From the sequence record MT129652.1: DNA of 64,000 nucleotides. One strand, given 5' to 3'. The position numbers and the translations under genes were made by a program. A model generated the notes under the pieces. It had not been told where the DNA came from and did no database searches. It saw nothing but the letters and a program-made list of their open reading frames with translations. Source of the stretch: Escherichia phage MN01. Positions 687-14,219 of this stretch are shown here, in pieces; position 1 is the stretch's first letter; each line of letters opens with the position of its first letter.

Positions 687-1382
687 ATGAAATTCTCTAA
701 AGACACTATCGCAGTTCTGAAAAACTTCACTTCCATTTACTCTGGCATTATGCTTAAGCCAGGTAATACCATCCTGACTCGTTCCGTAACTGGAGCGTCA
801 TATGGCGAATCTGAAATCAATGATACAATTGACTTTGAAGCTGCGATTTATGACCTGAACGGCTTCTTAAGTATCCTGGGCCTGGTAACTGACCAAGCTG
901 AAGTATCTCTGGCTGAAGACGCATCAAACATCATTATCAAAGACCAACGTTCAACGATTCACTGGCCTGCAGCAGACCCGAGCACTATCGTGTTCCCTGC
1001 TAAGAAGATTCCTTTCCCGGTAGCTAAGGTTATCTTCGACCTGAAAGGTAGTGACCTGCAGCAGCTTCTGCGCGTGGCTGGTGGTTTGTCTCTGGATACT
1101 TTTGCAATCACCAACAAAGACGGTAAGATTGTTATCCATGGTTATAATCAGCTCGAAGATAAAGAGTTGGCGCGTCCATTGTATTCCCTGGTGTGTGGCG
1201 ACTACGAAGGCGATGCAGCGTTTAAATTTATCATTAACAAACTGAACATGAAAATGATTCCGGCTGATTACCGTGTTATGCTTTGGGCGAAAGATGATAA
1301 ATTTGCTACGAAGTTTGAAGGCACACAAGCAAGCTATGTGATTGCAATGGAACAAGGCTCTAGCCACGAATTCCAAGATTAA
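687..1382 (+). CDS. 45: DNA polymerase sliding clamp gp45
   Basis: 231 aa; close match to recalled T4 gp45 (LKNF..I.SGIMLK, AADPST, FEGxxAxYV); synteny 45-44-62. Confidence 0.92.
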   Translation: MKFSKDTIAVLKNFTSIYSGIMLKPGNTILTRSVTGASYGESEINDTIDFEAAIYDLNGFLSILGLVTDQAEVSLAEDASNIIIKDQRSTIHWPAADPSTIVFPAKKIPFPVAKVIFDLKGSDLQQLLRVAGGLSLDTFAITNKDGKIVIHGYNQLEDKELARPLYSLVCGDYEGDAAFKFIINKLNMKMIPADYRVMLWAKDDKFATKFEGTQASYVIAMEQGSSHEFQD

Positions 1383-3427: not shown

Positions 3428-6142
3428 ATGCAAGAATTTTATTTAACTATCGAACAAATCGGTGACAATCTGCTCGAACGATATATTGACAAGAACGGTC
3501 ATGAACGTGTTCGTGAAATCCCTTATGCTCCATGCTTGTTTATGCACGCCCGCGAAGACCAGGCTGCAAAGTATACAGACATCTATAATAAAGGTTGTGT
3601 GAAAAAAGAATTCGATTCCATGCGTGATGCATCCCAGTGGATGAAGCGAATGAATGAAATGGGTCTCGAAGCTATGGGTATGGATGACTTTAAACTCGCA
3701 TACTTGTCCGACCGTTACCCGCACGAAATCAAATACGATTCAAGTAAAATCCGTGTGGCTAACTTCGATATCGAGGTGACATCTCCTGATGGGTTCCCTG
3801 AGCCGTCTGAAGCACGTCACCCTATTGATGCCCTGACACACTATGATTCGGTAGACGATAAATTCTATGTCTTTGACCTTTTGAGCTCACCATACGCCAC
3901 TGTGGAGCAATGGTCTATCGATATTGCTGCCAAGCTGCAAGAAGATGGCGGCGATGAAGTCCCTGAAGAAATCCTGGAAAAAATTGTTTATATGGCTTTC
4001 GATTCAGAAGAAGAAATGCTCCAGCAGTATTTGGTATTCTGGAACGAGAAAACTCCGGTTATGTTAACTGGTTGGAACATCGAGAAGTTTGATATTCCAT
4101 ATATCTACAACCGCCTTAAAAATGTATTTGGTGAAGCTACGGCAAAACGTCTGAGTCCACATCGTCGTACAAAAGTTAAGGTCATTAACAACGGTTTCGG
4201 TGAAGAACAAGAAATCATTCAGATTCTGGGTATCTCTGTTCTGGATTATCTGGACCTGTATAAAAAGTTCAGCTTCACAAACCAACCGTCTTATTCGTTG
4301 GATTATGTTGCGGAATCTGAACTGGGTGTTGGTAAACTCCCGTATGATGGTCCGATTTCTAAACTGCGTGAATCAAATCACCAGCGGTATATTTCTTATA
4401 ACATCATTGACGTTTATCGTGTTGTGCAGATTGACCGTAAGCGGCAGTTTATTAACCTGAGTCAGTCAATGGGTTATTACGCAAAAATGCAGATTCAGTC
4501 TGTATTCAGCCCAATCAAAACTTGGGATGCGATTATCTTTAACAGCCTGAAGACTCAAAACAAAGTCATTCCGGAAACCAAATCGCATGTTCGTCAATCG
4601 TTCCCTGGTGCATTTGTTAAGGAACCGATTCCGAACGCATACAAATATGTAATGAGCTGTGACTTAACATCTCTGTATCCGAGCATCATCCGACAGATTA
4701 ACATCAGTCCAGAAACGATTGCCGGGTCATTTACACCAGCGCCGATGTATGAATACATTGCAGGAACTGCTGACCGCCCATCTGATACATTTAGTTGTGC
4801 TCCAAACGGTATGATGTATTTTAAAGATGTTGCGGGTATTATTCCGACAGAAGTCACCAAGGTGTTTAATCAGCGTAAAGAGCACAAAGGTTATATGCTT
4901 GCGGCTCAACGTAATGGTGAACTGATTAAGGAAGCCCTGCGTAATCCAGGAACTGGTACAACCGAGCCTGAAGTTGATTATCGTTATGACTTCGATGACA
5001 ATATGAAAACAACCTTGCACGGTCTGAATCAAACAGTTCTGAATGGTATGTTGTACAAAGCGCAGATGGAAGAAGTTGCAGGCATGACCGCACAGATTAA
5101 CCGTAAACTGCTTATCAACAGTTGTTATGGCGCTCTGGGTAATATCTGGTTCCGTTACTTTGACCTGCGAAATGCAACCGCGATTACATCTTTCGGACAA
5201 CTTGCATTGCAGTGGATTGAGCGTAAAGTTAACGAATATTTTGATAGTGTTTGCGGTACAAGTGGTGAAACATATGTATTCTATGGTGATACTGACTCCA
5301 TTTATATCCAGTGCGATAACCTGATTAAAAAGGTTGGTGGTGAATCTAAATTCCGCGATACAAACCACCTGGTTGACTTCATGGACAAGTTTGCGAAAGA
5401 CCGTTTGGAACCGGCAATCGATAAAGCTTTCCGTGAGCTGGCTGAATACATGAACAACAAACAGCACCTTATGTTTATGGACCGTGAAGCGATTGCATGT
5501 CCTCCGCTTGGTTCTAAAGGTGTTGGTGGATTCTGGACAGCGAAGAAGCGTTATGCTCTGAACGTGTACGATATGGAAGGCACACGATATGCTGTTCCGA
5601 AACTGAAAATCATGGGTCTGGAAACTCAAAAGTCGAGCACACCAAAAGCATGTCAGAAAGCTCTGAAAGAATGTATCCGCCGTATGTTGCAAGAAGGTGA
5701 AGAATCTCTGCAGACATACTTCAAGGAATTCAATAAGGAATTTAATGAGCTTAACTACATGACCATTGCAGGTGTATCATCGGTTAACAACATCCAGAAA
5801 TATAATGAAGGTGGTTTCCCTGGATTTAAGTGTCCGGCTCATATCAAAGGCGTGCTCGCTTACATGCGTGCAACCAAAGGGTTGAAGACTGTTCCACAAA
5901 TCATGGAAGGGGAAAAGGTGTATGTGCTTCCTCTTAAAGTTGGTAACCCGTTTGGCGAAACCGTGATTGCATGGCCATCAGGGATTGAACTCCCGATTGA
6001 AATTCGTGACCAAGTCTTGCAATGGATGGACTACAACACACTGTTCCAGAAGACTTTTGTTAAGCCATTGACAGGGTTCTCTGAAGCAGCTAAGGTTGAT
6101 TACGAGAAAAAAGCATCTCTTTTTGATATGTTTGACTTTTAA
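3428..6142 (+). CDS. 43: DNA polymerase gp43 (family B, 3-prime to 5-prime exonuclease)
   Basis: 904 aa; exo motif FDIE, pol motifs SLYPSII and YGDTDS; synteny. Confidence 0.95.
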   Translation: MQEFYLTIEQIGDNLLERYIDKNGHERVREIPYAPCLFMHAREDQAAKYTDIYNKGCVKKEFDSMRDASQWMKRMNEMGLEAMGMDDFKLAYLSDRYPHEIKYDSSKIRVANFDIEVTSPDGFPEPSEARHPIDALTHYDSVDDKFYVFDLLSSPYATVEQWSIDIAAKLQEDGGDEVPEEILEKIVYMAFDSEEEMLQQYLVFWNEKTPVMLTGWNIEKFDIPYIYNRLKNVFGEATAKRLSPHRRTKVKVINNGFGEEQEIIQILGISVLDYLDLYKKFSFTNQPSYSLDYVAESELGVGKLPYDGPISKLRESNHQRYISYNIIDVYRVVQIDRKRQFINLSQSMGYYAKMQIQSVFSPIKTWDAIIFNSLKTQNKVIPETKSHVRQSFPGAFVKEPIPNAYKYVMSCDLTSLYPSIIRQINISPETIAGSFTPAPMYEYIAGTADRPSDTFSCAPNGMMYFKDVAGIIPTEVTKVFNQRKEHKGYMLAAQRNGELIKEALRNPGTGTTEPEVDYRYDFDDNMKTTLHGLNQTVLNGMLYKAQMEEVAGMTAQINRKLLINSCYGALGNIWFRYFDLRNATAITSFGQLALQWIERKVNEYFDSVCGTSGETYVFYGDTDSIYIQCDNLIKKVGGESKFRDTNHLVDFMDKFAKDRLEPAIDKAFRELAEYMNNKQHLMFMDREAIACPPLGSKGVGGFWTAKKRYALNVYDMEGTRYAVPKLKIMGLETQKSSTPKACQKALKECIRRMLQEGEESLQTYFKEFNKEFNELNYMTIAGVSSVNNIQKYNEGGFPGFKCPAHIKGVLAYMRATKGLKTVPQIMEGEKVYVLPLKVGNPFGETVIAWPSGIELPIEIRDQVLQWMDYNTLFQKTFVKPLTGFSEAAKVDYEKKASLFDMFDF

Positions 6143-10485: not shown

Positions 10486-10788
10486 ATGTTTAATCAAACC
10501 GATATGAACCGTTACTATTTTGGTCAGTTCGCTCGCCGTGATGAAAACTGTGCTGCTCTTATCGCATCAGGCATTCAAACTGGTAAATTAATAAAGCTCA
10601 AAAGCGATGTTCAACCTTCATCTGTTCGCAGCTCTCTTCGTGAGTATCTGCTTGCAGGCGGTGAAGTATATGTTATCGCTGAACCTTTTGTTAACGTGTG
10701 TGATGATTACACAATTAGTGTGACTGTTATGCACCCAACTACTGGGAAAATTCGTTGTCTGACTATGCACAACTATGAGTTGGCGTAA
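10486..10788 (+). CDS. hypothetical protein
   Basis: 100 aa; preceded by promoter cassette, followed by terminator. Confidence 0.55.
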   Translation: MFNQTDMNRYYFGQFARRDENCAALIASGIQTGKLIKLKSDVQPSSVRSSLREYLLAGGEVYVIAEPFVNVCDDYTISVTVMHPTTGKIRCLTMHNYELA

Positions 10789-10794
10789 GTGAAC

Positions 10795-10817
10795 AAAGGG
10801 GCTTACAGCCCCTTTTT
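10795..10817 (+). terminator. rho-independent terminator
   Basis: AAAGGGGC-ttaca-GCCCCTTTTT; loop doubles as -35 of next promoter. Confidence 0.65.
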
Positions 10818-10830
10818 CTTATGTTATAAT
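10802..10830 (+). promoter_or_regulatory. early promoter cassette
   Basis: CTTACA -35 inside terminator loop, 17 bp, TATAAT; leader CTATCAACTACTGGAG. Confidence 0.55.
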
Positions 10831-10856: not shown

Positions 10857-11174
10857 ATGAAAACCATTGATTGCAAGGCAGAATACAAAGTTTATTATCA
10901 TGGGTCAAGCTCTAATGCTGGAATCCAAAATATGCTTTGTCCTCCTGATGCAACTGGTGTTCTGTCAGAAGTTGGACGTAAGAAAAATTTAGGGCGTGTG
11001 TTTTTTACTGAAGATATTGGTTTGGCGCGTATCTATGCAGGAAGAGCAGCTCGCTCATATGGAGGAGAACCCCGTCTTTATCGTGTGATTGCACCGGTTG
11101 ACGTGGTTTGTTTAAATGATACTAAAGGCGCAACAGTTTATCACGCTGCCTGGGCCTTTTGTGAGGAAATCTAA
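10857..11174 (+). CDS. hypothetical protein
   Basis: 105 aa; SD GGAG; first of three translationally coupled ORFs. Confidence 0.55.
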   Translation: MKTIDCKAEYKVYYHGSSSNAGIQNMLCPPDATGVLSEVGRKKNLGRVFFTEDIGLARIYAGRAARSYGGEPRLYRVIAPVDVVCLNDTKGATVYHAAWAFCEEI

Positions 11175-11378
11175 ATGTATAAATTAGAGAACGTAGTGTT
11201 TATTGGTTGGTTTGAAAATGGTAATATGTTTACCAAAGAAACCGCCCTGGATGTCAGTGACAAAAATATGATTGAATGGGTTACAGTGCAGTATGCAGAA
11301 GTGAATAATGCGCTGGTTAAAGCCTTTGTTAATGACAATAAAGTTTTTGAATATGATGCCCGCATTGAGGAAATTTAA
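11175..11378 (+). CDS. hypothetical protein
   Basis: 67 aa; TAAATG coupling to neighbours. Confidence 0.45.
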   Translation: MYKLENVVFIGWFENGNMFTKETALDVSDKNMIEWVTVQYAEVNNALVKAFVNDNKVFEYDARIEEI

Positions 11379-11618
11379 ATGAATATCGCATTAATGAAAC
11401 CTACCCCTAGTTCTTTTTGGAATAAATCTTTTGGTAAGCATAATATGTTTATCCAACGCACCGTAAGCAGCTGGGAACTAGTTCTTTCAGTCGGCCACAA
11501 TGATTATGAACAAGAATACGTAGAGTTCTTCGATTTTCCTGTGAAACCTACCAAGCGTCAGATTCGTCAGACAAAACGCAAATTCCGCAAAATTTATCTG
11601 GAAGATGCATTAAAATAG
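11379..11618 (+). CDS. hypothetical protein
   Basis: 79 aa; basic C-terminus. Confidence 0.45.
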   Translation: MNIALMKPTPSSFWNKSFGKHNMFIQRTVSSWELVLSVGHNDYEQEYVEFFDFPVKPTKRQIRQTKRKFRKIYLEDALK

Positions 11619-11675: not shown

Positions 11676-11969
11676 ATGAAAAAGTTATTAATCGCGGCAA
11701 TTCTTACCGTAGCATCATGTGGTACAGCTCCAGTTACTGCTGGACTTGATAAAGACCTTTGTGAGTGGTCTATGACTGCCGACCAGACTGATGTTGAACA
11801 TCAGATTTATGCTGATATCATGAACATAACTAAACGTGACCGCCCTGATATGGTTAAAGAAGTATCTGACCAATTGACTTCTGGTGACGTTATGCAGTAT
11901 AACTATGTTCTGTATTGCGATGCTTCATTTGACAATAGCAAAATTGTTCAATGGGTTACAGGTGAATAA
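11676..11969 (+). CDS. secreted/lipoprotein, possible Spackle (Sp)-like periplasmic protein
   Basis: 97 aa, signal peptide MKKLLIAAILTVASC; same size and 41-61 location as T4 sp; identity not verified. Confidence 0.5.
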   Translation: MKKLLIAAILTVASCGTAPVTAGLDKDLCEWSMTADQTDVEHQIYADIMNITKRDRPDMVKEVSDQLTSGDVMQYNYVLYCDASFDNSKIVQWVTGE

Positions 11970-11970
11970 A

Positions 11971-12408
11971 ATGATTAACAGAAATTTAGTTATCAAAAAA
12001 CTTCGCTGTAAAAATCCAAATGCACAGGCATACCGGGTGTTTTGGAGCGATGAAATTCAATACCTGGGTTATTTTCTTGTTGATAGTGATGACAGAATTA
12101 CGTTTGCTCATAAGCTTCTTAACAAAGAATTAAACCATTGGCAAGAACTTATTGCAGTCAAGTCTAAATTATTTTCGCGCAATACAATGCACCAATTGGT
12201 TTATTTTTTCGCTGATGGTATTCCTGACAAGGTTGAATTTGATGGGTTTGAATTTAAAGACATCAACCCTGACAATGAATTGAATGACAGTATTGTTAAT
12301 ATGGGTATCCCAGGTAAGTACATTAAAAACAGTCTTTTGAAACTTCTGGAAACCCCTGTATATTCAGTAGACGACCAAATTTTTAATGCCTTTATGAAGC
12401 GAGATTAA
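11971..12408 (+). CDS. hypothetical protein
   Basis: 145 aa from internal ATG; C-terminus DDQIFNAFMKRD shared with next ORF. Confidence 0.5.
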   Translation: MINRNLVIKKLRCKNPNAQAYRVFWSDEIQYLGYFLVDSDDRITFAHKLLNKELNHWQELIAVKSKLFSRNTMHQLVYFFADGIPDKVEFDGFEFKDINPDNELNDSIVNMGIPGKYIKNSLLKLLETPVYSVDDQIFNAFMKRD

Positions 12409-12412
12409 TATG
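12370..12412. repeat. 43-bp gene-junction repeat, copy 1
   Basis: GACGACCAAATTTTTAATGCCTTTATGAAGCGAGATTAATATG; includes stop and next start. Confidence 0.7.
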
Positions 12413-12778
12413 TATATTCAAAGCGATTTATCTTATCTGAATTTTGAATTAGTTAAAAATAATGATGGTAATGCTCATTATGAATTCCGTGAACCCAGGT
12501 TTAATCAGGCGATTGGTTATATCATCGTTAAAGATGATGTTATCATAAAGGCTCGCTCATTTATGGTAATGAATGGGCCTTATGAAGATACTCGTGGCTA
12601 TCCATTTGATAAAAAGAATGTACGCGATTGTGCAGCATGGATAACCGGAAACCCTGAAATTGGGGTCATGTTATCTACTGAAGCAAATGACATTCTGGAT
12701 GCTGGCTGGGTTAAAGCTCAAGAACCGCCTACTGATATTGATGACCAGATTTTTAATGCTTTCATGAAGCGAGGTTAA
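12410..12778 (+). CDS. hypothetical protein
   Basis: 122 aa; C-terminus DDQIFNAFMKRG shared with previous ORF. Confidence 0.5.
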   Translation: MYIQSDLSYLNFELVKNNDGNAHYEFREPRFNQAIGYIIVKDDVIIKARSFMVMNGPYEDTRGYPFDKKNVRDCAAWITGNPEIGVMLSTEANDILDAGWVKAQEPPTDIDDQIFNAFMKRG

Positions 12779-12782
12779 TATG
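12740..12782. repeat. 43-bp gene-junction repeat, copy 2
   Basis: GATGACCAGATTTTTAATGCTTTCATGAAGCGAGGTTAATATG; 5 mismatches to copy 1. Confidence 0.7.
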
Positions 12783-12971
12783 ACTGCAATGTGTACGGGC
12801 TCTAAGATTTCGGTCTTCCAGATTTTTGAAGAATATGAAATCGTGTCGCAAGACCAAGAAGCAATCCATGTTATTGCTGATGATGGGGTTACCTGGATTA
12901 TTCCGTTGTATCATGAAGACACTTATGAAGTGACTGATGCAAATGGTGATAAAGCTATCTTCGTTGTATAA
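12780..12971 (+). CDS. hypothetical protein
   Basis: 63 aa, acidic. Confidence 0.45.
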   Translation: MTAMCTGSKISVFQIFEEYEIVSQDQEAIHVIADDGVTWIIPLYHEDTYEVTDANGDKAIFVV

Positions 12972-12990: not shown

Positions 12991-13158
12991 ATGAAAACAT
13001 TCAAAGATTTTATCAACGAAGATATGGTTGCCGGTGATGCAGGCGGAAACCCAACTAATATCGCAACAGGTACCACTTCCGGGGCAGTTGTCAATAAAGG
13101 CCCTGAACAAATCCCATCAAAAAAGCGTAAGAACAAAGACGATAAACCTACAGTATAA
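12991..13158 (+). CDS. small hypothetical protein (55 aa)
   Basis: SD AGGGGG upstream; Gly/Thr-rich with basic tail; not in ORF track. Confidence 0.35.
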   Translation: MKTFKDFINEDMVAGDAGGNPTNIATGTTSGAVVNKGPEQIPSKKRKNKDDKPTV

Positions 13159-13190
13159 TGGTCCTTCGGGGCCATTGAAATGAGGAAACT

Positions 13191-14219
13191 ATGTCATATA
13201 TTGATAAAGAATTTGCAGTCAGAGCTTTATCGTATCAACCACGTTATAGAGAAGTCACCGGGAGCACATTTAAGGCAAACTGTCGTTGCAAGGTTTGCGG
13301 TGACTCTCAGAAAGATTCACACAAGGCCCGATTCTGGGCGTATACCAATCCGGCTGACGGTGCGGTTTACGTGAAATGTTTTAACTGTGACTACTCCACG
13401 CATATAAGCAAATACATAAAAGAGTTTGAGCCTGATTTACATCGGGAATATATGGTTGAGAAGTATAAGGAGAATGCCTTTGGCAGACAACGTAATGAAG
13501 TTGCAGAAACTCCGAAAGAACCAGAAAAAACTCCGGTTATTGAGCAACTTGCTTTTTGCGAAAGAATCGATACTTTACCAGAAGCGCATCCGATAGTTAA
13601 GTATGTAAAAAGTCGGTGTATTCCGAGCAATGTTTGGAACCGGTTATGGTTTACAAACAAATGGCCTGCATTAGTTAACTCCGTTAATCCTGGGACGTAT
13701 AAGAATGAAACGAATGAACCACGCTTGGTTATTCCTATCTTCAACGGCAAAAAAGAAATCGAATCTTTCCAAGGACGAGCTCTTCGCAAAGATGCACCAC
13801 AAAAATATATCACAATCAAAGCCCACCCAGAAGCTTCCAAAGTCTATGGTGTAGACAAGATTGACGAACGCAAGCGCGTGTGGGTAATGGAAGGTCCGAT
13901 TGATAGTTTGTTTATCCCTAACAGCATTGCGATAACCGGTGGAACATTAGCATTGGAAGCCGTTCCTTATGCAGAAACCCGAGTATGGGTAATGGACAAC
14001 GAGCCAAGACATCCTGATACGATTAAACGTATGAAGAAACTTGTTGAAGCCGGTGAAGCCGTTATGTTCTGGGACAATGCACCATGGCATACGAAAGACA
14101 TAAATGAGATGGTTAAATCAGAGGGTGCAACCCCTGAACAAATCGAATCATATATGGCCGATAACGTTACTCAAGGGCTGCTGGCGAGAATGCGACTTTC
14201 GAAGTACGCAAAAGTTTAG
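13191..14219 (+). CDS. 61: DNA primase gp61
   Basis: 342 aa as T4 gp61; N-terminal zinc ribbon CKVCGDS...CFNCDYS; synteny with 41. Confidence 0.9.
   Translation: MSYIDKEFAVRALSYQPRYREVTGSTFKANCRCKVCGDSQKDSHKARFWAYTNPADGAVYVKCFNCDYSTHISKYIKEFEPDLHREYMVEKYKENAFGRQRNEVAETPKEPEKTPVIEQLAFCERIDTLPEAHPIVKYVKSRCIPSNVWNRLWFTNKWPALVNSVNPGTYKNETNEPRLVIPIFNGKKEIESFQGRALRKDAPQKYITIKAHPEASKVYGVDKIDERKRVWVMEGPIDSLFIPNSIAITGGTLALEAVPYAETRVWVMDNEPRHPDTIKRMKKLVEAGEAVMFWDNAPWHTKDINEMVKSEGATPEQIESYMADNVTQGLLARMRLSKYAKV

Follow-up and report, generated by a model that had tools for sequence, protein, structure and literature searches.

A Repeated Gene Junction in a T-Even Phage Is a Conserved C-Terminal Peptide of Probable AdfA-Family Paralogs Joined to an Ordinary Stop/Start Overlap

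The junction that is repeated at the ends of two adjacent genes in the 64-kb stretch of phage DNA analyzed here (the window) is an almost invariant C-terminal peptide combined with an ordinary overlap of ribosome-binding site, stop codon, and start codon, and it is no dedicated DNA exchange site. The two genes, denoted P1 and P2, are probably old and strongly diverged tandem paralogs of the AdfA family that have a common C-terminal helix and reside in the dmd-tifA-sp-adfA island. The best explanation of the 43-bp repeat as a whole, and one that we consider likely to be correct, is that it consists of the coding sequence of this helix (33 nt) and a generic context, approximately 10 nt long, for translational coupling of the T4 type.

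The window is from an SP18/Gaprivervirus-like T-even phage; the identities determined by megablast were 97.8% for ECML-359 and 94.5% for SP18. The gene order of dmd, 61.4-like, sp, P1, P2, a 63-aa gene, 61.1, and 61 was confirmed, and the features are collected in Table 1. The reading frames of P1 and P2 are found between spackle and gene 61.1, which is the slot occupied in T4 by gene 61.2 (adfA, anti-DarT factor A). Genes bearing the same C-terminal tail are located directly 3' of sp in T4, RB69, RB32, SP18, VR7, and JS10, and in the metagenomic loci L024, L027, L028, and L029. The name tifA was given to T4 gene 61.4, and the dmd-tifA region has been proposed to be an anti-toxin island (PMC9391042). 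An element resembling the PeSL of T4-type phages, which is described below, lies near the locus at positions 10795-10830.

Table 1. Features of the dmd to gene 61 locus in the window
Feature	Position	Strand	Evidence
dmd (anti-RnlA/LsoA antitoxin), start of anti-toxin island	11175..11378	+	Pfam Dmd 1.1e-20, PHROG 2102
61.4-like ORF (DUF7279; T4 61.4 = tifA)	11379..11618	+	Pfam DUF7279 1.1e-19
sp (spackle)	11676..11969	+	Pfam T4_Spackle 1.7e-43
P1, 145 aa, phrog_8539, slot of T4/RB69 adfA (61.2)	11971..12408	+	ORF, PHROG, structure model
Tail peptide 1, VDDQIFNAFMKRD, coding	12367..12405	+	predicted helix 133-142, pLDDT <50
Repeat copy 1, 43 nt	12370..12412	+	direct-repeat search
Junction 1, GAGATTAATATG: weak Shine-Dalgarno in last codons, TAA, overlapping P2 ATG	12401..12412	+	sequence
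P2, 122 aa, phrog_4122, single-domain, AdfA-C-half-like, ortholog of RB32 ORF033c	12410..12778	+	ORF, PHROG, structure model
Tail peptide 2, IDDQIFNAFMKRG, coding	12737..12775	+	predicted helix 110-120, pLDDT about 50
Repeat copy 2, 43 nt	12740..12782	+	direct-repeat search
Junction 2, GAGGTTAATATG: Shine-Dalgarno GAGG, TAA, overlapping ATG of 63-aa gene	12771..12782	+	sequence
63-aa gene, phrog_3249, 3' of junction 2	12780..12971	+	PHROG
Gene 61.1 homolog	12991..13158	+	PHROG 1823; SP18 and VR7 annotations
gp61 DNA primase, right anchor of locus	13191..14219	+	context

An earlier inspection of the DNA (the sequence-only reading) had noted that P1 and P2 end with the same 11 residues, DDQIFNAFMKR, followed by TAATATG, and both features were confirmed on the + strand. 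In the two proteins these residues are followed by Asp or Gly and then by a TAA codon that overlaps an ATG. The 43-bp copies described at the same time were recovered by a direct-repeat search as one 43-nt direct repeat with an identity of 88%, 5 mismatches, and a start-to-start distance of 370 bp. The synonymous mismatches are GAC/GAT, CAA/CAG, GCC/GCT, and TTT/TTC, and the sole nonsynonymous mismatch is GAT/GGT (Asp/Gly). The longest exact runs between the copies are 11, 10, and 8 nt. The degenerate back-translation of DDQIFNAFMK has exactly 2 matches in the window versus 0.01 expected from shuffled sequences, and thus a chance origin of the repeat is excluded. The last 12 nt of the repeat are a generic context of ribosome-binding site, stop, and start that is also present elsewhere in the window.

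The AdfA proteins of T4 and RB69 were found to have this peptide, [IV]DDQIFNAFMNRG, at their C-termini. The C-terminus of T4 gp61.2 is IDDQIFNAFMNRG, followed by TAATATG, and that of RB69 AdfA is VDDQIFNAFMNRG, followed by TAAAATG. The AdfA C-terminal motif, [IV]DDQIFNAFM[NK]RG, was recognized in both P1 (VDDQIFNAFMKRD) and P2 (IDDQIFNAFMKRG). A search of 1.84e9 representative proteins with a profile of the tail (hmmsearch) gave 9 matches, all of which belong to AdfA or to the P1 (145 aa) or P2 (122 aa) families, and all of the matches with a retrievable context are located directly after sp. A protein search with a 48-aa tail query returned mostly short fragments, since short proteins are favored when candidates are collected. 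The rare variants among unconstrained protein matches are DQQIF, DVQIF, ..AFL, ..MERG, and ..MSRG.

The sequence DDQIFNAFM is encoded in 32 of 32 instances (23 fetched loci and the window), an invariance that is partly circular because the searches were constrained to the peptide. Under the same constraint, the nucleotide variation within these nine codons is confined to third positions. Additional synonymous variants (AAC, TTC, GAT, and GGC) are present in more distant loci, and every degenerate third position of the tail varies among the relatives. In the locus L027 the peptide is retained and the junction is different. The two tail copies in the window differ at 4 of 33 nt, relative to 5.47 expected from a codon-usage model with independent codon choice (P(<=4) = 0.28). 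The nucleotide identity of P2 between the window and RB32 is 58.7% for the body and 85.7% for the tail, and the conservation of the C-terminal helix of 12-13 residues greatly exceeds that of the remainder of the proteins that carry it. Since the synonymous positions vary and L027 maintains the peptide without TAATATG, it is the peptide that is the target of purifying selection, and the DNA is free to drift at its synonymous positions. The back-translated peptide was located at 16 loci in IMG/VR, which is too few for statistics on the positions of crossovers.

P1 and P2 had been described as unrelated reading frames that differ outside of the shared residues. The latter description is correct for pairwise comparison, where BLASTP aligned the last 18 residues alone and no full-length similarity of P1 with P2 was found, and it probably does not hold at the level of profiles and structures. 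T4 gp61.2 scores 450 bits against the Pfam AdfA profile (PF23813), which has a gathering cut-off of 27 bits. The P2 family aligns with the C-terminal half of AdfA. The Tequatrovirus ortholog of P2 (P0051) exceeds the threshold over about 100 residues, with a score of 32.4 bits for the alignment of residues 21-118 to profile positions 112-211, and P0054 scores 26.1 bits (residues 35-120 to positions 134-211). P2 and P1 from the window differ from AdfA in being below this cut-off: P2 scores 20.5 bits over the tail only (residues 109-122), P1 has no match at E<=0.1, and the members of the P1 family match in the tail only. P2 from the window is linked to AdfA by transitivity, via its ortholog with 51% identity.

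With Foldseek, the AF2 model of P2 (pLDDT 76) matched two BFVD entries, one from the P1 family (E 7.4e-5, TMq 0.58, 141 columns) and one of 212 aa that is a putative AdfA (E 1.7e-4, TMq 0.50), and the best non-self match of the P1 model (pLDDT 66, moderate confidence) was a P2-family entry (E 8.1e-5, TMt 0.55); these E-values include the amino acid identity of the shared tail, and the RMSDs are large (8-17 Å). Apart from self-matches, P1 and P2 each have the other as the best match, with TM values of 0.46-0.58 for models that include the tail, which itself has a pLDDT of about 50 or below in both. The same order of elements is predicted for the two proteins: five strands precede a helix, which is followed by a single strand in P2 and by two in P1, and then by the C-terminal helices. 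The model of P1 contains a beta-meander/alpha/beta domain, a flexible linker, and two C-terminal helices, of which the last is the shared tail and the other an additional helix (116-127) ahead of it.

Profiles were also aligned using hhalign after removal of the last 14 residues, with 300 column shuffles as the control. None of the 300 shuffles reached the observed score for P2 with the N-terminal half (z 7.1) or the C-terminal half (z 5.0) of AdfA. The scores for tail-less P1 were reached by 4 of 300 shuffles with P2, 7 of 300 with the C-terminal half of AdfA, and 10 of 300 with the N-terminal half, and the hhalign probabilities of the P1 body with AdfA or P2 were 1-5%. For the two halves of AdfA with one another, 1 of 300 shuffles reached the observed score; these halves resemble each other and P2. 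A hairpin, 'hGhhhVKDNxI', and the helix that follows it are also shared with AdfA. Support for a relationship of the bodies is good for P2 with AdfA and weaker for P1. The claim that the two reading frames are unrelated is therefore probably wrong, in view of the Pfam match of the P2 ortholog, the reciprocal Foldseek matches (TM about 0.5), the common order of elements, and tail-less profiles that outscore the shuffled controls. Homology over the full length, which would make P1 and P2 simple tandem paralogs, is approached by profiles and structures and is not seen pairwise.

P1 and P2 are similar to AdfA in their slot directly after spackle within the dmd-61 region and in their C-terminal peptide and stop/start junction, but AdfA is a two-domain protein of 208-212 aa whereas P1 and P2 have one predicted beta-meander/alpha/beta domain each in 145 and 122 aa. 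Fission of AdfA into P1 and P2 was ruled out because RB32 and its relatives carry a full-length AdfA in addition to P2, and because P2 matches both halves of AdfA. The ortholog of P2 is represented by ORF033c of RB32 and its relatives (phrog_4122, including the '61.2' of a T2 record), a group annotated as 'similar to gp61.2' that is 51% identical in amino acid sequence and has the same tail. Both are positioned after a gene of the AdfA family, but the left and right neighbors are AdfA and 61.1 in Tequatrovirus and P1 and the 63-aa gene in the window. In T2 the copy of P2 is truncated and adfA is absent. The tail-less body of P1 was found in 85 phage records of INPHARED (tblastn) and that of P2 in 332. 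Sequence and Foldseek searches of the PDB gave no significant relative, and even T4 AdfA is matched by none of the NCBIfam models. AdfA is known to bind DarT1, and for the RB69 protein specificity is determined at residue 164, where the His164 allele neutralizes the toxin (PMC11257639). This residue would be located in the corresponding helix of the domain, the alignment of its counterpart in P1 and P2 being of low confidence.

When the 43-mer was followed in other T4-type genomes, as had been suggested, the junction was found to flank different genes. In T-even genomes the tail and junction follow three gene bodies (AdfA, P1, and P2) and precede at least four downstream genes (P2, a 73-aa 61.4-like gene, the 63-aa gene, and 61.1). 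The architectures are AdfA/61.1 in T4, AdfA/P2/61.1 in RB32, P1/73-aa in VR26, P1/P2/73-aa/63-aa in SP18 and VR7, P1/63-aa in JS10, and P1/P2/63-aa in the window; in RB69 and JS10 the 63-aa gene is directly after AdfA or P1. The presence or absence of P2 ends at the repeats, as illustrated by T4 versus RB32 and by VR26 versus VR7 and SP18. A 49-mer of the junction occurs 753 times across 556 phage records, and the tail and junction are duplicated in tandem (59 bp) in vB_Eco_CP. In a small sample, Tequatrovirus genomes with AdfA only have the AGA (Arg) variant of the tail, as does the P2 that adjoins 61.1 in RB32 and L021, and the AdfA of two-gene genomes has AAA in place of AGA. P2 from the window is 51% identical in amino acid sequence to P2 from RB32, and the flanking orthologs are 60-70% identical. 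Because P2 has diverged as much as the backbone genes, we reject a recent horizontal transfer of this gene.

T4 is known to amplify and delete DNA at microhomologies of 6-10 bp in the dmd-tifA region (PMC9391042). The 43-nt repeat, with its exact runs, offers homology of this kind: a segment of this anti-toxin island is flanked by direct repeats, the difference between natural variants is exactly the unit between the repeats, and one tandemly duplicated junction is known. However, the documented events occurred at 6-10 bp repeats under laboratory selection (PMC9391042), whereas the 43-bp repeat results from the conservation of a peptide, as its by-product, and is known from sequence variants. 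Because the flanking genes differ, the P2 indels coincide with the repeats, and T4 recombines at such short homologies, the repeat is plausibly a recombination substrate, with the occasional loss of the second gene as a by-product. Direct repeats 370 bp apart would be a substrate for the very active short-homology recombination of the phage, and this may account for P2 having been cleanly lost or gained among the relatives.

The sequence-only reading suggested that the junction could be a microhomology site for the exchange of gene modules. In this case the 43-bp module would be kept as DNA, as a portable recombination site that swaps unrelated cassettes and as a coding analog of the PeSL. The PeSL (promoter-early stem-loop), a mobile regulatory cassette of T4-type phages, is an intergenic element that combines a terminator-like stem-loop with an early promoter. 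Such elements are short repeats found where sequence has been inserted, deleted, or replaced in hyperplastic regions, and they have reportedly been proposed to mediate modular shuffling by homologous recombination. The copies of the repeat in the window likewise border indels between relatives (T4/RB32; VR26 versus VR7/SP18), but the repeat is coding and unstructured and has neither the intergenic stem-loop nor the sigma-70 promoter, and no promoter or terminator match was found inside either copy. It is true that the gene bodies upstream of the module and the genes downstream of it both vary, that the presence or absence of P2 concerns exactly the interval between the copies, that the module is duplicated in tandem in vB_Eco_CP, and that short-homology recombination is known in the locus (PMC9391042). 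However, the synonymous divergence is at the level of independent codon choice and all such positions vary among relatives, the peptide persists in L027 despite a different junction DNA, and the 'cargo' genes are one superfamily for which the module is their own C-terminus. The divergence of P2 between genera (51% amino acid identity) is like that of the flanking backbone, with no sign of recent transfer. A 43-bp site is also not required for exchange, because the indel of the neighboring 73-aa gene needs only AATATG. A DNA exchange site as the reason for the conservation is thus largely refuted, and we consider it unlikely; what survives of the suggestion is a plausible recombination substrate at the P2 indels, in which the conserved object is the peptide and not the DNA.

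The tails could also be kept alike by concerted evolution, either because the tandem duplication is recent or because gene conversion between them is still in progress. Both copies encode Lys-Arg (AAG CGA) in the Gapriverviruses and Asn-Arg/Lys (AAT AGA or AAA) in the Tequatroviruses, and both copies in L021 have an otherwise rare GAT as the second codon, both of which favor this explanation. It is nevertheless very unlikely: the bodies of P1 and P2 have no similarity detectable by BLAST, the 4 differences in 33 coding nt compare with the 5.47 expected and the synonymous sites of the tail are saturated, the P2 tail of the window has 4 mismatches with that of RB32 and 5 with that of its own P1, and the tails of L028 differ from one another (MERG versus MSRG; CGA versus AGA). 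The least probable of the explanations is that the coding sequence harbors a regulatory RNA or DNA element serving the downstream gene, such as a MotA-dependent middle promoter, an enhancer, an element for translational coupling, or a site for a repressor. The sequence TGCTTTC-N12-TAATAT of copy 2 resembles a MotA box and a -10 element, the Arg-Gly codons double as the Shine-Dalgarno sequence for the gene that follows, and its start codon overlaps the stop codon. The MotA-like pattern, however, occurs 20 times in the window versus about 10 expected, so that a single match is weak, and the GCC in copy 1 and in most P1 tails breaks TGCTT. The synonymous variation is unconstrained, and any regulatory appearance is limited to the last 10-12 nt, which are generic. 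An explanation by RNA structure was rejected, since the predicted fold is neither stable nor unusual (z +1.6 for junction 1 and +0.1 for junction 2). The reading of copy 2 as a middle promoter is a weak side possibility, and a literature search found neither a mapped promoter nor an earlier description of this junction.

With the conserved peptide as the preferred explanation, P1 and P2 would each be one copy of an alpha/beta domain that AdfA apparently carries twice. The domain would be followed by a flexible linker and by the near-invariant amphipathic helix, [IV]DDQIFNAFM[KN]R[GD], and the Shine-Dalgarno sequence GAGG/GAGA would be built into the Arg-Gly/Asp codons, ahead of TAA and the overlapping ATG. 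The variable domains may be target-binding heads, probably diversified against different toxins or defense proteins, and the tail helix, which is invariant and unpacked, may act as a shared handle that contacts one constant partner or serves self-association. To our knowledge, no such design of variable head and constant handle has been described for phage counter-defense proteins. The core of the tail, IFNAF, loosely resembles SLFDMFDF, the putative clamp-binding C-terminus of gp43 from the window phage; in RB69 this end of gp43 binds the clamp. It is conceivable, if doubtful, that the tail helix docks the diversifying anti-toxin heads of AdfA, P1, and P2 on a single constant partner, with the replisome sliding clamp gp45 as one candidate. 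If true, docking on gp45 would bring proteins that inhibit DarT and similar DNA-modifying toxins to the replication fork.

The striking repeated junction is fully explicable by a shared peptide and a generic ribosome-binding context. Two genes that are 'hypothetical' in hundreds of T-even phage genomes are hereby placed, with the confidence stated above, in the AdfA counter-defense family, and their C-terminal helix gives mutagenesis and the search for partners a well-defined target. Because they lie inside the proposed anti-toxin island (PMC9391042), P1 and P2 are concrete candidates for proteins that inhibit toxins, whether DarT-like or of another kind.

A direct-repeat search of the window identified a single 43-nt repeat, with copies that are 88% identical and spaced 370 bp apart, at the 3' ends of two adjacent genes for proteins denoted here as P1 and P2. 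The gene order is dmd, 61.4-like, sp, P1, P2, the 63-aa gene, 61.1, and 61. Both proteins terminate in DDQIFNAFMKR[D/G], hereafter the tail, followed by a TAA/ATG overlap in the form TAATATG. Four of the five mismatches between the copies are synonymous third-position changes, and the fifth alters the final residue from Asp to Gly. The degenerate back-translation of the tail has two exact matches in the window, compared with 0.01 expected. The sequence-only reading of two ORFs with the same 11-residue end, the same TAATATG, and 43-bp copies 370 bp apart was confirmed as written. The alignment of P1 with P2 by BLASTP is confined to the last 18 residues. Gaprivervirus-type coliphages such as ECML-359 and SP18 are 94–98% identical to this region.

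Features of the window discussed in the text
Feature	Coordinates	Strand	Product or description
Sliding clamp gene	687-1382		gp45
DNA polymerase gene	3428-6142		gp43
100-aa ORF	10486-10788
Stem-loop and promoter	10795-10830		AAAGGGGCTTACAGCCCCTTT + T-run; CTTACA-17-TATAAT with TG
105-aa ORF	10857-11174
Second repeated junction	11162-11181, 11366-11385		20 nt
dmd	11175-11378
61.4-like gene	11379-11618		DUF7279
spackle, sp	11676-11969
P1	11971-12408	+	145 aa
43-nt repeat, copy 1	12370-12412
P2	12410-12778	+	122 aa
43-nt repeat, copy 2	12740-12782
MotA-like pattern	12757-12781		TGCTTTC-N12-TAATAT
63-aa gene	12780-12971		63 aa
61.1	12991-13158
UUCG-tetraloop hairpin	~13157-13176		aatggtcc-ttcg-gggccatt
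Primase gene 61	13191-14219

Between sp and 61.1, T4 carries gene 61.2, which has been renamed adfA (anti-DarT factor A) and whose product binds the DarT1 toxin (PMC11257639). The products of dmd, tifA (61.4), and adfA are all toxin inhibitors, and the region is therefore termed the anti-toxin island (PMC11257639, PMC9391042). The tail is the C-terminus of AdfA. T4 gp61.2 ends in IDDQIFNAFMNRG, followed by TAATATG at the start of 61.1, and RB69 AdfA ends in VDDQIFNAFMNRG, followed by TAAAATG at the start of the 63-aa gene. P2 of the window is matched by the Pfam AdfA model (PF23813) and by PHROG 3781 solely through its last 14 residues.

The 49-nt junction was found by blastn at 753 places in 556 phage records, with two copies in many and three in one, and the tail-less bodies of AdfA, P2, and P1 were found by tblastn in 487, 332, and 85 records, respectively. 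By these counts, T-even-like coliphages commonly have P2 after AdfA or P1. An exhaustive hmmsearch of 1.84 billion representative proteins with a tail-centred profile returned nine matches, all from the AdfA, P1, or P2 families; among them are two divergent P2-like proteins (P0053 and P0054) and a divergent P1-like one (P0036). Every match with fetchable context lies directly after sp, and thus the tail is restricted to this gene family and to the post-sp locus. Three 33-aa proteins from contigs of ~135–168 kb (P0048, P0049, and P0050), MLSDEINDLLND...SIDDQIFNAFMNRG, are identical to the C-terminal 33 residues of Tequatrovirus P2; either their starts were mis-called or they are remnants of a truncated P2 that keep the tail.

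The bodies of P1 and P2 had been read as unrelated, and this was not borne out by Pfam, structural models, Foldseek, or hhalign; the proteins are probably related but very diverged. Pfam AdfA gives the Tequatrovirus P2 orthologue P0051 (RB32 ORF033c type) 32.4 bits, past the cut-off of 27 bits, with residues 21–118 aligned to positions 112–211, the C-terminal half of AdfA. P0054 scores 26.1 bits (35–120 against 134–211). The AlphaFold2 models of P2 (pLDDT 76; E9-18, E21-28, E33-41, E44-50, E58-60, H68-79, E85-88, H90-104, tail helix H110-120) and P1 (pLDDT 66; E5-11, E19-25, E30-37, E42-51, E56-59, H70-81, E87-90, E93-96, a disordered linker, H116-127, tail helix H133-142) have the same order of elements. 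In both, the tail helix is of low confidence, as is the linker that sets it apart from the domain.

The Foldseek results for these models must be read with the identical tail present and RMSDs that are large. Against BFVD, the P2 model gave just three significant matches outside its own family: a 157-aa protein of Yersinia phage fPS-65 (E 2.4e-5, TMq 0.53), the P1-family protein of VR25 (E 7.4e-5, TMq 0.58, 141 columns), and a 212-aa entry that matches AdfA in length (E 1.7e-4, TMq 0.50). The best non-self match of the P1 model was the P2 family (E 8.1e-5, TMt 0.55). No significant match was found in the PDB by Foldseek. Using hhalign with the last 14 residues deleted, colinear alignments were obtained around a common hairpin, hGhhhV[KD][DN]xxI, and the next helix. 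The hhalign probabilities were low (1–32%), and the observed scores were reached by column shuffles (300 per pair) in 0 cases for P2/AdfA-N (z 7.1), 0 for P2/AdfA-C (z 5.0), 1 for AdfA-N/AdfA-C, 4 for P1/P2, 7 for P1/AdfA-C, and 10 for P1/AdfA-N. There is good support for a domain that occurs twice in AdfA and for P2 as a relative with a single domain. P1 is supported as a more distant single-domain relative in AdfA's own slot, weakly by sequence, on the basis of position, tail, an N-terminal PNAQxY motif, the hairpin, and structure. Neither protein of the window passes the Pfam threshold itself, and both are therefore classed as AdfA-like paralogues rather than AdfA.

The similarity of the two repeat copies could reflect selection on DNA, recent duplication, gene conversion, or selection on the peptide. 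DDQIFNAFM is encoded in 32 of 32 instances from 24 sequence sets (23 fetched loci and the window), with nucleotide variation at third positions only, in searches that required the peptide. Relatives found by profile search provide independent evidence, in that they retain the peptide but encode it with further synonymous variants (AAC, TTC, GAT, and GGC), including cases with a very divergent body. Amino-acid variants are rare (DQQIF, DVQIF, AFL, MERG, and MSRG). Peptide and junction DNA are separable, as shown by a P2-like gene of divergent sequence immediately downstream of sp (L027, Logan SRR23924977 contig, 4340-4400) that keeps SIDDQIFNAFMNRG with the junction TAAagaggctaATG, not TAATATG. 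Two independent encodings of DDQIFNAFMKR at the codon usage of the window would differ at 5.47 of 33 nt, compared with 4 observed (P(≤4) = 0.28). Between the P2 genes of the window and RB32, DNA identity is 58.7% in the body and 85.7% in the tail; protein identity is 51%, comparable to that of flanking orthologues (dmd 60%, sp 66%, 61.1 70%, gp61 61%). The repeat closes with 12 nt (GAG[AG]TTAATATG) of generic Shine-Dalgarno/stop/start context; near-matches to them number nine in the window, where 0.8 would be expected. The predicted RNA folds of the two copies are unremarkable (z +1.6 and +0.1). Nothing in the repeat comparisons points to selection at the DNA level, to recent duplication, or to strong gene conversion. 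A strongly selected peptide and an ordinary translational-coupling junction account fully for the similarity.

A shorter case of this RBS/stop/start pattern is the second repeated junction, TGAGGAAAT[C/T]TAAATG (90% identical), where the 105-aa ORF and dmd both end in ...EEI* right before the next ATG. Copy 2 of the 43-nt repeat also contains a pattern resembling a MotA box and -10 of a middle promoter, which is weak evidence as a single match when the window has 20 against 9.8 expected; copy 1 lacks it because GCC disrupts TGCTT. PeSL cassettes of T4-type phages are promoter-terminator elements. The 43-nt repeat was rejected as a PeSL, being coding and unstructured with no promoter inside. 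The G+C-rich stem-loop overlapping a sigma-70-like promoter between the 100- and 105-aa ORFs does have the PeSL anatomy. The short spacer that separates 61.1 from gene 61 contains the UUCG-tetraloop hairpin.

The tail is found in varied arrangements: AdfA then 61.1 (T4); AdfA then the 63-aa gene (RB69); AdfA, P2, 61.1 (RB32); P1 then the 63-aa gene (JS10); P1 then a 73-aa gene (VR26 and several Dhakavirus-like loci); P1, P2, and the 73- and 63-aa genes (SP18 and VR7); and P1, P2, and the 63-aa gene (the window). On the question of whether the module flanks different genes elsewhere, it ends the AdfA, P1, and P2 bodies, which probably belong to one superfamily, and precedes different downstream neighbours. 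In two genera, genomes with and without P2 differ by exactly the unit that lies between the two tail copies. AdfA-only Tequatroviruses carry an AGA tail variant (in a small sample), which sits on P2 next to 61.1 in RB32 and L021, while the AdfA of two-gene genomes has AAA; this distribution is what would be produced by crossover within the tail. In vB_Eco_CP (an Escherichia phage, L022, OZ034683.1, 2431-2548), a 59-bp unit of tgctgcaccttctatt + tail + TAATATG is perfectly duplicated in tandem. The duplication yields a 21-codon mini-ORF, nearly all tail, between a P2-type gene and 61.1, and is a natural product of slippage or unequal recombination at the junction.

The 73-aa DUF7279 (61.4/tifA-like) gene is present in SP18 (L001, 2664-2885) and VR7 and absent from the window, an indel bounded at each end by the AATATG hexamer alone (SP18 versus 12776-12782 of the window); the island therefore also has a variable second tifA-like paralogue. 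T2 has been remarked in print to lack adfA, and its locus (L030, LC348380.1, 885-1548) agrees. There, sp is shortened to 279 nt and the label 61.2 stands on a P2-type gene truncated to 108 aa, so the deletion endpoints are not at the tail junction.

Because T4 amplifies and deletes DNA at 6–10 bp microhomologies in this locus (PMC9391042), the 43-bp repeat is very likely a substrate for deletion or duplication. The proposal of a micro-homology site for gene exchange finds partial support in the P2 indels, which end at the repeats; the junction itself is generic. Recombination at the repeat would follow from the shared peptide and does not account for the conservation.

The closest known entities are AdfA, RB32 ORF033c, the PeSL cassettes (PMC2839356, PMC4122927), and T4 short-homology recombination (PMC9391042). 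Similarity to 61.2 was previously noted by annotators, with RB32 ORF033c already annotated as "similar to gp61.2"; P1 and P2 are added AdfA-like members. No description of the shared tail of AdfA, P1, and P2 was found in the literature consulted. The tail is a conserved, family-specific C-terminal helix, maintained at the peptide level and common to three diverged families. Genes for the sliding clamp gp45 and the DNA polymerase gp43 are also present in the window, and the C-terminus of gp43, KKASLFDMFDF, is of the RB69 type. The ...SLFDMFDF end is a clamp-binding tail, and the loose resemblance of IFNAF to its hF[DN]xF core may serve as a lead to a partner of the AdfA-family tail.

The variable domains of AdfA, P1, and P2 may be target-binding heads, since AdfA binds DarT1 and residue 164, the specificity residue of RB69 AdfA, lies in the domain helix (PMC11257639). 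The invariant, unpacked amphipathic tail would contact a constant partner or mediate self-association. The main value of these results is that P1 and P2 are nominated as counter-defence candidates and that the tail provides a defined target for experiment.
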